From Promethearchaeota archaeon (GTDB lineage Archaea > Asgardarchaeota > Lokiarchaeia > Sigyniarchaeales > SOKP01), in NCBI GenBank assembly GCA_016839585.1, contig JAEOTZ010000004.1, positions 1 to 64,000 of the forward strand: DNA of 64,000 nt, read 5' to 3'. The translations under genes and the position numbers were made by a program. Below the pieces are notes generated by a model, which saw nothing but the letters and a program-made list of their open reading frames with translations, was not told the origin of the DNA and made no database searches. Numbering within the stretch: the stretch's first letter is position 1; each line of letters opens with the position of its first letter. This document shows, piece after piece, positions 37,229 to 63,198 of the stretch.

Positions 37229-37252
37229 TTTAGTTAAAACTCTTAAAATTTT

Positions 37253-37276
37253 CGTTTTAGCTTCCTATACATATCG
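37253..37276. promoter_or_regulatory. degenerate ModE-box-like operator upstream of moaC
   Basis: CGTTTTAGCTTCCTATACATATCG: same 24-bp CG...CG frame and identical ATACATATCG half-site as the tupA operator. Confidence 0.6.
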
Positions 37277-37312
37277 ACAATTTATTTAAATTGAAATTTC
37301 TTAAAAACTTAA

Positions 37313-57784: not shown

Positions 57785-59698
57785 TTGATGCATAACTTTT
57801 TAGACTACCTAAAGAAGGATAATATAATAGAGACACTTATTTCACAAGGGATTAATAAACAATTCCATAAAGATTTCCTTAAAAAAATAATAGATAATAT
57901 AGAAAAGTCTCAAAATTTAATTCAAAGTTCTTCGGAATCAATTAATTATAAATCTAATTTTCTTAATCTTGATTTATTTGGAAATATTTATGAAAGGATA
58001 TTAAATCATAAAGAAAGGAAGGCTTTGGGTGAATTTTATACTTCTTTCTCAATTGTGGATTGTATTTTAAATAAAATAGGTTATGATTATAAGGATGACA
58101 TTGAGCGTAAGAAACTAATTGATATAAGCTGCGGTTCAGGAAGTTTTCTAATTCAGGCTATTCGAAGATTAATAGATCGTTATAAAATAATTTACAATAA
58201 AAAAGAAATTGCTGAACTTTCTCTGAAAGAATCTAAATCAATAATTCAAGGAGTGAAAGATAATATTTACGGAATAGATATCAATCCTATTGCATGTGTT
58301 TTATGCCAACTCAATATTCAATCCGTTTTATTTGATATTTTTAAAATTATAAGAAAGTATGAAGATAATTTTCAATTTCCTAAATTTAATATAAACAATA
58401 CAAATACTTTAAGTTGCAATGAAAGAGAATCATTCAACTTTGTTGTAGGAAATCCCCCTTATTTATTTATTAGAGACATTCCAATAGAACAGAGAAGATT
58501 AATTGAGTCGAGTGATTTTGATACAAAAGATGGTCAATATGATTATTATCAAATTTTTATAGAGCTTGGCATTAAATTTTTGAAAGATCAGGGATTCCTT
58601 GGGTATATTGTTCCAGATTCACTTCTGGCTTTATCAAATCGATCTTCAATTAGGAAATTTATTTATAATTATACTAAAATTAAAGAGGTTTACCATACTG
58701 GTCCAAAATTTGATGATCTTATTGTCTCAAATATTATTTTAATTCTGCAAAAAGAAAGATTAAAAGAAAAAAGAGAAAGAAATATAATCCAAATTCATTA
58801 TGGATTTCTAAAAAAACATCAAATTACTCAAAAATTAATTGAAAAATGGGATTATAAATTTTTGATAAATTTAAATTCTATGGATAGTGTCATTCTAGAC
58901 CATTTAAATAATAAATTTCCAAAGTTGAGCGATTTAATAAACAGTGAAAATTTTACTATTCTTTTAAGTAGAGGTACTGAATTAGGAAAAGAAGGTAAGG
59001 TAATTTTTTGTACTAAATGTCAAAAATATTTACCATTACCAAAAAAAGAATTGAAATGCAAAGTCTGTAATAGTTATTTAAATGAGGAATTAATAGAAAC
59101 TATAATTTATGAAAATTTTACAAGAGGAAAAGAGAGAAACTTAAAACCTTTCATTTATTCAATAAATCGATACAAAATTAAAGATTTGAAATATATTGAC
59201 ATTGAGAAACAGGGGATAAACTACAAGAACTTAAAAATTTACGAAAACCGAATTATTATTAGGCAATTAAGTGAACATAATCTTATTTCTGCTACTTATG
59301 ATAAAGATTTTTCACTTACTTCCCAATCTTTTTACAATTTGAAAATATTAAATTCAAATACTGCTGAAATTAATCATTTATATGTTTTAGGGATTATTAA
59401 CTCCACACTTCTCTCATATTATTTTATAAAATCTTTTGGTTCCTACAAAAAACTGTTTCCCAGAATATTAATCGAAAAAATTAAAGATTTCCCAATCAAA
59501 ATTCCTAAGACAAATGAAGAAAGACAATTAGCAAGAAAAATAGGAGAAAAAGTCTCTCTTTTGCTTAATGTAACTGAAATGAATAGTAATTTTAATCTTA
59601 ATATTCAAAAAAAAATTGATCTCCTAGTATTTGAGTTATATCAAATTCCAACAGTAAATCAAGAGTATATTTTCGATTTTATGAATAATTTAAATTAA
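57785..59698 (+). CDS. N6-adenine DNA methyltransferase, gamma class (Eco57I/TaqI-like) with target recognition domain
   Basis: GEFYT, DISCGSGSFL, YGIDIN, VGNPPY; TaqI_C-like IIIRQ...LGIINS.L. Confidence 0.88.
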   Translation: MMHNFLDYLKKDNIIETLISQGINKQFHKDFLKKIIDNIEKSQNLIQSSSESINYKSNFLNLDLFGNIYERILNHKERKALGEFYTSFSIVDCILNKIGYDYKDDIERKKLIDISCGSGSFLIQAIRRLIDRYKIIYNKKEIAELSLKESKSIIQGVKDNIYGIDINPIACVLCQLNIQSVLFDIFKIIRKYEDNFQFPKFNINNTNTLSCNERESFNFVVGNPPYLFIRDIPIEQRRLIESSDFDTKDGQYDYYQIFIELGIKFLKDQGFLGYIVPDSLLALSNRSSIRKFIYNYTKIKEVYHTGPKFDDLIVSNIILILQKERLKEKRERNIIQIHYGFLKKHQITQKLIEKWDYKFLINLNSMDSVILDHLNNKFPKLSDLINSENFTILLSRGTELGKEGKVIFCTKCQKYLPLPKKELKCKVCNSYLNEELIETIIYENFTRGKERNLKPFIYSINRYKIKDLKYIDIEKQGINYKNLKIYENRIIIRQLSEHNLISATYDKDFSLTSQSFYNLKILNSNTAEINHLYVLGIINSTLLSYYFIKSFGSYKKLFPRILIEKIKDFPIKIPKTNEERQLARKIGEKVSLLLNVTEMNSNFNLNIQKKIDLLVFELYQIPTVNQEYIFDFMNNLN

Positions 59699-60028: not shown

Positions 60029-61024
60029 ATGAAAACTGATGAAAAAATGGAAAAGCTACCCGATGAAACTCTTCTAAAACCAATATTAATAAATTACATG
60101 AATGAGATTGATGGGGTACTAGCGGTAGCGATATGTGATAGAAATGGATTTATTATTTCTTCGGAATTTAAACAACAAGCGGCTGATGAATCAGTAATTG
60201 GTGTTATTTCGGCAATTCTTGACAGCTATATTGACAGAATTAAAAGCGAATTTGGATCTTTTGGAAATTTTTTTAATATTACAATTACTGGTGATAAAAA
60301 ATTCGCATTCGCTAGTATGGGTCCACATTCAATTCTAACCACAGTTGCAGACCCGTCAACTTCCGATGTTGAATTAAAAGTCTATTCTGAACATGTAGCA
60401 AGTAAAATTGAACTAGTTTTGAAAGGTAATGAAGATGTGTCTCCTCAAATTCCTGAGATAATAAAGGCATTGTCTAAAACTCGAGGTGGACAACTTTCAA
60501 AATTGGAGGGAGAGTTTTCAAATAAATTAATATTAACTGGAGATTATGCAGTTGGTAAAACATCTCTTATTAGACGATTTGTTGAGAATAAATTTGAAAA
60601 GGATTATATCTCTACTATTGGGGTACAGATTTCAAAAAAGATCGTTAATATAAGTGAGCAAACAAAAATGAATTTCATCATTTGGGACATCGGTGGACAG
60701 GTTAAACAAATGGCACCGTATCGAAAAAAATTTTATACTGGTACTAATGCTGCATTTATTGTTGTAGATCGAACTCGCCCAGATAATTTAAAAAGTGTTG
60801 ATTTTTGGTTTAATGATATCAAAAAACAAATTCCTAAAGATATCTCAATTGTAATAGTTGGCAATAAATCCGATTTAGTTGATGAAATAGTTATTAGTGA
60901 AGATGACATAAGAACTATTGCAAAAGAATTTGGTTTCCATTACATTCTTACCTCTGCCAAAACTGGAGTTGGTGTTAATGATGCTTTCTTATATGTTGCG
61001 TACAGAGTTATAGAAATTCTATAA
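60029..61024 (+). CDS. Roadblock/LC7 domain fused to Rab-like small GTPase
   Basis: N-term GVLAVAICDRNGFIISS roadblock; C-term GDYAVGKTS, STIG, WDIGGQ, NKSD, TSAK. Confidence 0.9.
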   Translation: MKTDEKMEKLPDETLLKPILINYMNEIDGVLAVAICDRNGFIISSEFKQQAADESVIGVISAILDSYIDRIKSEFGSFGNFFNITITGDKKFAFASMGPHSILTTVADPSTSDVELKVYSEHVASKIELVLKGNEDVSPQIPEIIKALSKTRGGQLSKLEGEFSNKLILTGDYAVGKTSLIRRFVENKFEKDYISTIGVQISKKIVNISEQTKMNFIIWDIGGQVKQMAPYRKKFYTGTNAAFIVVDRTRPDNLKSVDFWFNDIKKQIPKDISIVIVGNKSDLVDEIVISEDDIRTIAKEFGFHYILTSAKTGVGVNDAFLYVAYRVIEIL

Positions 61025-61113
61025 ATTGTAAGAAACAAACTTTTTATTTGCTCGACTTCTTTTAAATAATAGATAATTTTAATATTGAAATCATTTAATG
61101 GAGGTTAGATAAG

Positions 61114-62034
61114 ATAGTATTAAAAGTTGCATTCAATCAAATATTAGCAACCTGAAACGCAGCTGGCTATATAATGGGTTTTTCAATTAAAGAAATTACA
61201 TACAAACAAAGATATCTAATATACTTAACAGAACAAGAATACTCAGGACCTTGGTTTAGTTTTAAATTAAAAGGAAAAACAATAGGGACAATTCCTGTAA
61301 TTTTAAAAAACGTAGAACCGACCCCTGTTTATAATATGGTTAATACCCGTATGGGTTCTGTTATTCATAGAGTTACTCTTGATTTCAATATCACAGAATA
61401 CCTGAAAAAACTTATGAAAGAAGGTAAATTAAAACATCATCCATTTAAGAAAAAAGAATTCGTTCGCTTGTATATAGATATTTTTAACCGTCCAAAAGTA
61501 CCTTTTATTAATACATATTTTACATTAAAAAATATTTCAGACTACAATTTAAACGATTTTTCAATGTATTTTGTATTTGACTTTGATATTAATGGACTTG
61601 AAGGATTTGATAACGATTTTTCAGGATATGATGAAGAAAGTGATATTATTTATCAATATGACAAAACAGGGTTACATGGGGGCTTTTCTCCCCTCTCTAA
61701 ATCAACAAATTTCGAATCCTGTTTAACAAAGGATTTTAAAATAAATAATGAAAATTTAAATCTTTCAAATACATTATATAAGGGTCCTGGAGAGATTCTA
61801 TCAGCATTACAGATTGAATTCATGACTTTAGAACCTAATCATTCATTTCAAACCGCTTTAGTAATTTCTGGTGGAGAAAGCAAAACTGAGTTAATAGAAA
61901 ATATACAAGCAGGAAAAAGTAATGCTATAAAATATTTAGGACAGGTAAATAGATCAGTTAAATCAGAGCAACGGAATTTACAAGAGGAGGCATTTATTAA
62001 ATTGAATATACAAGAAGGGAAGGAATGTGAATAA
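61114..62034 (+). CDS. candidate selenoprotein of unknown function (UGA at codon 14); at minimum a 286-aa hypothetical protein from 61174
   Basis: GGAGGTTA-6nt-ATA, then VLKVAFNQILAT-TGA-NAAGYI-MGFS in frame; SECIS-like hairpin directly after the stop. Confidence 0.65.
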
Positions 62035-62035
62035 A

Positions 62036-62116
62036 TAAAATCCAATTTGATGATTCAAATAAAAAACCTTTATTCGGAAGTTATTTGATGAATACTCTGC
62101 GCGAGTGAGGATTTTA
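62036..62116 (+). ncRNA. eukaryote-type SECIS-like structured element in 3'UTR
   Basis: TAAAATCC/GGATTTTA basal stem; ATGAT/TGAA GA-tandem core; TCAAATAA/TTATTTGA upper stem; AAAA opening the apical loop. Confidence 0.65.
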
Positions 62117-62133
62117 ACATATTAATTATTCAA

Positions 62134-63198
62134 TTAATAGTTAAAATCATATTTTTGATAATTCAGAATAAATTTGTTATTAACATTATTAGAACTCTTT
62201 ATTTTATATAATAGAATATCTCGTTCTTGTTTTGTAATAACAGGAAATTTATAGTGGACAGAATTATATCTTATTTCTTTATTTTTCTTCTGATATTTTT
62301 TTATGAAATTGACATGCTGATTTAGTCTATCATTTAATAATTCAAGATTCAGTTGTTTAATATTCTCTATATTTTTTTTAAATATATTCATGAATTCTGA
62401 GTTAATTTCATACCCAATTGAGTTTCTTGCAGAGATCATTGCTGCCAATGATGTTGTTCCTGTTCCCCAGAAAGGATCTAAAATTATATCTTCATATAAA
62501 GAATACATATTTATTAAACGACATGGTAATTCTAAAGGATAAGCTGCAGATCGCTCTCTTAATTTTTTTTGATTATTATCGTTTGTTTTTAAAATTTGAG
62601 GTGTTCCTCTGATATCTACCCAAATATCTGAAAACCATTTATTCCTTTCTTCCCAGAAAAACGCGCTGTTATATCTATTTTCCGATTTTGGGGTTATATT
62701 GCGTATATTTTGTCCTTTCCTAAATATTAAAATATACTCGTGTTCAAGAGTGACATACGCATTAGGAGGTAACATTCCAGAACCAAGGAATTTATTTGGA
62801 CTATTTGTTGGTTTTCGCCACAATATACAAGGGAGTTCAATAAAACCTTTATGTTGGAAAAAGTTGGAAACTTTAACATGATTGGGATATAATTGAAAGG
62901 ACTTACCAATTTTTCTTGTAGAATCTCCTATATTGATGCATACTATTCCCCCTAATTTTACTACTCGAACAACTTCATTCCATACTTTATCTAACTCTTC
63001 ATGCATCAAATTAAATGCTATTCTACCTTTTTCTTCTTCGAGTGCTTTTTTAATCTTATGATTTAAAGAAGAAAATAATGAATCCCACATTTCAATCATA
63101 GGATAAGGAGGTGAAGTTACCATTAATTCTATGGAGTTTGGTTCAACTTCGCGCATTTCAGATGAATTTTTAAAATATATCTTATGAGTTGTTTCCAT
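62134..63198 (-). CDS. N4-cytosine/N6-adenine DNA methyltransferase, beta class
   Basis: VTSPPY before DPFWGTGTT; HEYILIFRK. Confidence 0.9.
   Translation of the reverse strand: METTHKIYFKNSSEMREVEPNSIELMVTSPPYPMIEMWDSLFSSLNHKIKKALEEEKGRIAFNLMHEELDKVWNEVVRVVKLGGIVCINIGDSTRKIGKSFQLYPNHVKVSNFFQHKGFIELPCILWRKPTNSPNKFLGSGMLPPNAYVTLEHEYILIFRKGQNIRNITPKSENRYNSAFFWEERNKWFSDIWVDIRGTPQILKTNDNNQKKLRERSAAYPLELPCRLINMYSLYEDIILDPFWGTGTTSLAAMISARNSIGYEINSEFMNIFKKNIENIKQLNLELLNDRLNQHVNFIKKYQKKNKEIRYNSVHYKFPVITKQERDILLYKIKSSNNVNNKFILNYQKYDFNY

Follow-up and report, generated by a model that had tools for sequence, protein, structure and literature searches.

A Probable SECIS Element with a Third Hairpin Behind a Lokiarchaeia Gene Not Annotated as a Selenoprotein Gene

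SECIS Elements of Asgard Archaea and Related RNAs

The Asgard selenoprotein families listed to date are SelD, FrhA/VhuU, HdrA, FrhD/VhuD, Prx-like, AhpF-N-like, and DsbA-like, and all seven have known Pfam-type folds (PMC11227280, PMC13188914). Archaeal, bacterial, and eukaryotic SECIS models give no significant matches in Loki selenoprotein genes (PMC4989117). The lokiSECIS elements of these genes are recognized by an AUGA directly before the upper stem and a GA directly after it. Further features are an apical A-run and a final G that is usually preceded by an A (PMC4989117). SBP2 is absent from Asgard archaea (PMC11227280).

Type I lokiSECIS (HdrA-VhuD, VhuU, PrxL) have the AUGA, a 9-position stem, GA/AA, and an 11-nucleotide apical loop that runs from the A-run to the G without a ministem. 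The SPS/selD-type lokiSECIS (type II; PMC4989117, PMC11227280) lie directly past the stop codon in the 3’UTR. In this genome, they are composed of a basal helix, an AUGA...GA core, a 7-bp upper helix that leads into an A-rich bulge and an apical ministem, and, on the 3’ side, a hairpin with a UGC-containing loop. The eukaryotic form 2 SECIS (Rfam SECIS_1 and others) is also a 3’UTR element with a kink-turn AUGA/GA, unpaired A’s, and a ministem.

The k-junction is defined in PMC10573300 as a k-turn to which a third helix has been added on the strand without the bulge. It has a tandem G.A core and a 5’-strand loop of 3 nucleotides, and the third helix, on the non-bulged 3’ strand, separates the NC-side from the C-side helix. 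No literature link between SECIS and the k-junction was found, and PMC11227280 cites the k-junction paper for GA_AA pairing only. No mention of a third hairpin was found in the main texts of PMC4989117 and PMC11227280; one may be drawn in their figures.

The DNA analyzed here, referred to as the window, is a stretch of 64,000 nucleotides from contig C9 of an assembly with a total length of 3.45 Mb and 29% GC. The nearest database proteins are from Promethearchaeota/Lokiarchaeia MAGs. The element under study lies within a 99-nucleotide gap between two convergent genes. The first is the listed + strand ORF (61174-62034), which encodes 286 aa and has no Pfam family. The second, on the 3’ side of the element, is an N4/N6 DNA methyltransferase gene on the − strand (62134-63198). 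Also neighboring the first gene are an Eco57I/TaqI-type N6 DNA methylase (57785-59698) and a small GTPase of the Ras family whose N-terminus is extended by approximately 160 aa (60029-61024).

The element is very probably the 3’UTR SECIS of a selenoprotein gene that is not annotated as such. Translation of the mRNA would start at the AUA at 61114, which makes the UGA at 61153-55 the 14th codon. Approximately 880 nucleotides downstream, and 2 nucleotides past the TAA, the RNA would fold as a Lokiarchaeia-type SECIS with a basal helix, a kink-turn core (AUGA/GA), a 9-position upper helix, an A-rich bulge, a ministem, and a hairpin on the 3’ non-bulged strand. This SECIS would direct the Sec-specific elongation factor with Sec-tRNA(Sec) to decode UGA-14 as selenocysteine. 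The analysis itself covers the structure, its conservation and covariation, the likeness to SECIS of known selenoprotein genes of the same genome, the conserved coding through the UGA, and the Sec/Cys pairing with homologues. Sec insertion at UGA-14, the AUA start, the factor binding the RNA, and a role for the side hairpin are inferred.

By its gene content, the host genome is a predicted user of selenocysteine. It has a SepSecS gene (388 bits), an EFsec/SelB-family gene above the family cut-off, a PSTK-like gene (E 2e-42), and two tandem selD genes with one in-frame TGA each, taken to be Sec-containing. A tRNA-Sec-like match of 117 nucleotides, below the Rfam cut-off, lies approximately 220 nucleotides from SepSecS and is perhaps intron-containing. 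ARAGORN did not call a tRNA-Sec, either genome-wide or in locus L003. SepSecS and the tRNA-Sec-like sequence are clustered at G000:C86:58379-63929, with EFsec approximately 3 kb further.

The RNA Element and the Third Hairpin

The whole element is 81 bases in length (62036..62116, + strand), starts 2 nucleotides past the TAA at 62032-34, and is predicted to form a three-way junction. The basal helix is composed of 8 bp between 62036..62043 and 62109..62116, and its AUCC/GGAU core is invariant in 23 of 23 orthologues. A T4 run within its 3’ strand may double as an archaeal termination signal. The SECIS core consists of the AUGA at 62050..62053, which forms sheared G.A pairs with the GA at 62090..62091. 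The AUGA is present in 22 of 23 orthologues (one has AGGA), while the GA is invariant in all 23.

The upper helix has nine positions, with 62054..62062 pairing with 62081..62089. The first position is variable and can be a U.U, C-G, or A-U pair, like that of selD copy 2. The apical region (62063..62080) contains the A-run, a 2-bp ministem (62067-68 with 62076-77), and a terminal AAG. The AAAA at 62063-66 and the AAG at 62078-80 are kept in 22 of 23 orthologues. The 3’ side hairpin, on the non-bulged strand, spans 62094..62106 and has a 4-bp stem (62094-97/62103-06) with a UGCGC loop (62098-102).

These parts agree with the sequence-only reading, which had described an 8-bp basal helix (62036-43/62109-16), a core ATGA(T) (62050-54) opposite TGAA (62089-92), and a perfect 8-bp upper helix (62055-62/62081-88). 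The apical AAAA followed by a CC/GG mini-helix and the side hairpin were likewise found where that reading had placed them. The words on which it had based a second, box C/D interpretation are also present, namely TTGATGA at 62047 and 62085, CGGA at 62075, and GTGA at 62105.

The AUGA of the element stands directly before the upper stem and the GA directly after it, and the apical region has the A-run and, following an A, the final G that are described for lokiSECIS. With the selD type, the element shares its place directly past the stop codon, the core, the basal helix, the A-rich bulge with ministem, and the side hairpin with a UGC-containing loop. It differs in its upper helix, which has nine positions as in type I, in its primary sequence, which is unrelated apart from the motifs, and in belonging to another gene family. 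The side hairpin and the basal helix also occur in the type I elements of this genome, whereas the apical region here is 18 nucleotides long and has a 2-bp ministem. Relative to eukaryotic form 2, the upper helix is shorter, and the 3’ strand carries a third helix where the core is joined to the basal helix. Judged from sequence, this RNA is of the lokiSECIS kind. What appears to be new is the selenoprotein family and the general, conserved third hairpin.

Folding energy for the element is weak. The MFE z-scores are −1.9 on the + strand and −2.4 on the − strand, and the + strand MFE fold keeps the basal helix and loses the inner helices, because k-turns are outside the folding model. No SECIS or C/D family of Rfam matches the element at the gathering threshold or at E up to 10. 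The only sub-threshold matches are a chance lncRNA match on the element (E 9.1) and SNORD59, which lies 30 nucleotides upstream on the other strand. The absence of Rfam SECIS matches is expected, since published models fail on lokiSECIS (PMC4989117). BLASTN found no second copy of the element in the genome. With a weak folding energy and no Rfam family, the case was therefore built on comparison with other sequences.

The element lies directly 3’ of the stop codon in 22 of 22 orthologous loci, found among 24 same-genus genomes. The stop codons of the orthologues are mixed (TAA, TAG, and TGA), and the DNA past the element cannot be aligned among these loci. RNAalifold recovered the same four helices independently from the orthologues. 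Compensatory (double) changes occur at six pairs compared with 2.7 expected from shuffles, and none of 500 shuffles reaches six. Such changes are seen in three of the four pairs of the side hairpin, and the upper helix has a C-G to U-A change at pair 28/61 of orthologue alignment A2. The covariation events are few because sequence conservation among the orthologues is high. On these comparative data, the predicted fold is confirmed as more than chance.

The two selD 3’UTRs of this genome contain, from 5’ to 3’, a basal helix, AUGA, a 7-bp helix, an A-rich bulge, a ministem, GA, a 3’ side hairpin, and the closing basal strand. This plan is kept in 43 selD SECIS from 25 genomes of the genus, and three pairs of the selD side hairpin have compensatory changes among these 43 sequences. 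Two covariance models were made, one from the selD SECIS only (R1) and the other from the orthologues of the element only (R2). The best R1 match in the 64-kb window is exactly the element, at 19.2 bits and E 0.041 with filters off, a score that is not significant genome-wide (E of approximately 2 when scaled to 3.45 Mb). Bona fide SECIS of other genes or genera score 11 to 31 bits with R1, and the element falls inside this range. A genome-wide R1 scan scored 150 of 4605 first-look candidates, and the element is not among the matches listed; for this reason, the window scan with filters off was relied upon. In the opposite direction, R2 was run on 56 kb covering selD and homologue loci, where its five best matches are all selD SECIS; it found no second strong match over the whole genome. 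The models built from selD SECIS and from the orthologues match each other’s SECIS. The sequence-only reading had proposed a check of this kind, along with covariation in orthologues.

A general model, made by aligning type I SECIS with R1, was dropped because R1 is too selD-specific and the resulting alignment (A4) contained false matches. An explicit structural descriptor of the three-way architecture was used instead. The strict descriptor found 10 sites in the genome, compared with 0 to 6 (mean 1.8) in five shuffled genomes. Nine of the 10 sites are the element, selD, four HdrA-VhuD pairs, a VhuU-like gene, and two further UGA-containing ORFs. Both the stem and the basal helix are poor at the tenth, on the minus strand of C64 (offsets 37233-37304 of the reverse-complemented contig), which probably matches by chance. 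A looser pattern scan likewise recovered selD, HdrA-VhuD, the VhuU-like gene, the two further UGA ORFs, and the element.

The first of the two further ORFs (G000:C60:21740-22110, L096/L098) is an ORF of approximately 95 to 119 aa with an in-frame TGA and the local motif SSTU...C, followed by a clean type I SECIS with a side hairpin. No Pfam family matches it, a search of 30 relatives gave no homologue, and it may be another unlisted small selenoprotein. The second (G000:C31:25705-26021, L097/L099) is a putative small ORF, also followed by a type I SECIS, that encodes a hydrophobic segment and contains an in-frame TGA. It has no Pfam family, and weak homologues with one TGA each are found in two same-genus genomes.

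A side hairpin is present in all ten bona fide SECIS of the genome, with a GC in the loop that is often part of GCAA or GCGA. The hairpin that had seemed extra is therefore the rule in this lineage. The sequence-only reading had placed it outside the standard SECIS model, which holds insofar as it is foreign to the eukaryotic model, but it is no oddity among the SECIS of this genome. Nor does the element stand apart from the known SECIS of its lineage, since it resembles those of selD, HdrA-VhuD, and the VhuU-like gene. By these comparisons, the side hairpin is a standard, covarying part both of the SECIS predicted for this genome and of the selD SECIS found throughout the order.

With this hairpin, the element is predicted to be a k-junction-like three-way junction. 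Its predicted secondary structure resembles that of the k-junction (PMC10573300) in the tandem G.A core, a 5’-strand loop, and the position of the third helix, and it differs in two respects. The 5’ loop is 5 to 8 nucleotides here instead of 3, and linkers of 2 to 5 nucleotides flank the third helix.

The Gene, Its UGA Codon, and Its Product

The databases call only 61174-62034, which contains no in-frame TGA. Read from 61114, the same frame contains an ATA, twelve sense codons, the TGA at 61153, six sense codons, and the annotated ATG at 61174. The TGA (61153..61155) is invariant in all 21 insertion-free orthologues and is also present in two orthologues with an insertion, and it lies approximately 880 nucleotides from the element. 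Within codons 2 to 20 (19 after the start), the third position varies in 18 codons and the second in five among the 21 orthologues, with the TGA itself invariant. By this measure, the coding pattern is one that runs through the TGA. The sequence-only reading had cited an upstream UGA as favoring a SECIS, and the UGA at 61153-55 is conserved and in frame.

In one family of the order, homologues have an ATG start and a CxxU motif in which the U is aligned to the TGA at 61153. In another family, the homologues have CxxC in an uninterrupted frame, with a Cys aligned to the TGA. The first Cys of the motif is Leu, Val, or Phe in this genus. With these distant CxxU and CxxC homologues added to the coding pattern, the predicted selenoprotein gene is placed at 61114..62034 on the + strand (306 codons and TAA), with Sec at position 14. 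The product ends with Lys-Glu-Cys-Glu-stop (62020..62034), in which the penultimate Cys is conserved, and a Cys is found within the last one to four residues of every full-length homologue aligned (alignment A3).

The putative start codon is the ATA at 61114..61116, which is ATA in 20 and ATT in one of the 21 insertion-free orthologues. A Shine-Dalgarno-like GGAGGT (61100..61105) lies 8 nucleotides before it. Most orthologues have GGAGGT 5 to 9 nucleotides before the ATA or ATT codon, while L069 has AGAGGT. Several orthologues have in-frame stop codons one or two codons before the ATA, and no ATG, GTG, or TTG occurs between the stop and the TGA. We therefore infer initiation at the AUA. An apparent AUA initiation codon (once AUU) is thereby conserved across a genus, an observation of its own.

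Two orthologues, L048 and L057 (genomes G022 and G024), have a 29- or 32-nucleotide insertion one base after the TGA that breaks the frame. The insertion begins with UCUUCA and ends with CAAGA(U/A); it folds into a hairpin by itself, and the exon sequences on its two sides can base-pair. Removing it exactly restores the frame and the conserved peptide, and the upstream mini-exon and the SECIS are intact. The insertion may be an mRNA intron or another form of bypass; alternatively, translation in these species may now start at a downstream AUG. A canonical bulge-helix-bulge could not be drawn at the inferred boundaries.

The CxxU homologues L070, L071, and L073, from another family of the order (f4), have a conserved GC-rich hairpin 15 nucleotides past the stop codon. 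This hairpin lacks the AUGA, A-run, and GA features, and no lokiSECIS-like structure was found behind these genes.

Of 24 same-genus genomes, 22 encode one copy of the 286-aa protein, at approximately 70 to 76% identity. A word-index search returned 392 database homologues. The 120 listed are 285 to 289 aa in length at 93% query cover, are labeled “hypothetical” where named, and were called without the Sec-bearing N-terminus. An exhaustive search of 1.84 billion representatives returned only 34 clusters at 50% identity. The full-length protein has no family in Pfam or NCBIfam, and a sequence-profile search of the PDB found nothing below E 0.39.

An AlphaFold2 model from a 34-sequence alignment has a mean pLDDT of 90.4 and a pTM of 0.89. 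It matches the N-terminal beta-sandwich of GH15 glucoamylase/glucodextranase, GH94 phosphorylases, and GH116 beta-glucosidases, with Z of approximately 18 to 20 and an rmsd of 2.6 to 3.3 Å over 215 to 236 residues. Matches at Z of approximately 20 have an rmsd of 2.7 Å over 215 to 229 residues. Residues 1-277 of the model align to the GH15/GH94-type beta-sandwich domain, and no part of the catalytic barrel of these enzymes is present in the protein. In the model, residues 3-30 form a beta-hairpin (strands 3-15 and 18-30, pLDDT of approximately 60 to 90) that holds Sec-14. The C-terminal tail with the Cys has a pLDDT below 50 and is therefore probably flexible. A selenenyl-sulfide redox couple between Sec-14 and the C-terminal Cys is a reasonable guess from the model. 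As in other CxxU/C-terminal-Cys selenoproteins, the Sec aligns with the second Cys of the CxxC of homologues, and the tail Cys could serve as a resolving residue. Unlike in those proteins, the predicted fold is not thioredoxin-like but a GH15/GH94/GH116 N-domain beta-sandwich.

The RNA could instead be a kink-turn 3’UTR structure or terminator without recoding, with the UGA ending a 13-codon upstream ORF and the protein starting at the AUG at 61174. Such a reading would fit the gene callers, which start the listed database homologues at this AUG or a nearby one, and it would dispense with the AUA start that the upstream frame requires; L048 also has an in-frame AUG inside its insertion. It does not account for the six codons that separate the AUG from the UGA, which stay in frame and are conserved at the protein level. 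The CxxC homologues read through the aligned position, and the CxxU homologues start at an upstream ATG. Residues 3-30 are placed by AlphaFold2 as a beta-hairpin within the beta-sandwich-type model, and the RNA has the specific SECIS features of known selenoprotein genes. This reading is considered unlikely.

Less probable still is a fossil SECIS, no longer functional and left after loss of Sec, which could have stood where the penultimate Cys is now. In some eukaryotic selenoproteins, Sec lies near the C-terminus, a position comparable to that of the C-terminal Cys here, and this Cys is conserved. Yet it is a Cys in all homologues and never a UGA followed by coding sequence, and the in-frame UGA at codon 14 is intact and invariant. 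The element is also far better conserved than the DNA beyond it, with its pairing kept by compensatory changes across 23 species.

The sequence-only reading had also offered an archaeal box C/D guide sRNA directing 2’-O-methylation of rRNA or tRNA. The assignment would be C (UGAUGA, 62048-53), D’ (CGGA), C’ (UGAUGA, 62086-91), and D (GUGA, 62105-08), closed by a terminal stem. The two UGAUGA words, the terminal stem, and the 13-nucleotide spacer before GUGA occur together in this one genome. In 21 of 22 orthologues from other genomes, the first box is UAAUGA (UAAGGA in one) and not RUGAUGA. The D-like GUGA is unique to this genome, with AAA, UUU, UAU, and others found before the 3’ basal strand in orthologues, and the D’-like CGGA is not conserved. 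The spacer from C to D’ is 21 nucleotides compared with about 12, and the supposed guide changes by compensatory pairs, like a hairpin, instead of being conserved in sequence. No antisense match of at least 10 nucleotides with at most 1 mismatch was found to 18 tRNAs, a partial LSU rRNA, and an SSU 3’ fragment; this target set is incomplete, as the SSU rRNA of the genome is unassembled, the LSU is partial, and two complete relatives gave fragments only. Rfam C/D families do not match the element either. With boxes that are not conserved, incorrect spacing, and a guide that is a covarying hairpin, the C/D sRNA was rejected and is the least credible of the alternatives to a SECIS.

Meaning for Lokiarchaeia Selenoproteins

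A broader proposal on the SECIS architecture of Lokiarchaeia and a new selenoprotein family is favored slightly over its negation when all of its parts are taken together. In the first part, Lokiarchaeia SECIS would be k-junction-like three-way junctions and not two-helix, eukaryote-like hairpins, and an archaeal SECIS-binding factor would need the conserved hairpin with a GC loop (often GNRA-like) as a determinant of recognition or folding. In the second part, the gene would represent a selenoprotein family that was previously unlisted and is restricted to Lokiarchaeia. Its members would be stand-alone GH15/GH94-N-domain-like beta-sandwiches with an N-terminal (C)xxU, a C-terminal Cys tail, and, in this genus, an AUA start.

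The locus would add a family that is absent from the published Asgard lists (PMC11227280, PMC13188914), with a predicted fold that is carbohydrate-enzyme-like and not thioredoxin-like. It also carries a lesson for annotation, as public databases cut the gene short at its UGA codon. Gene callers would miss such genes on two counts, the UGA and the non-AUG start.

A Methanococcus reporter system is available (PMC9622424) and is suited to probing the third hairpin as a determinant. This hairpin would provide a concrete, mutable determinant for SECIS recognition without SBP2, both archaeal and ancestrally eukaryotic.
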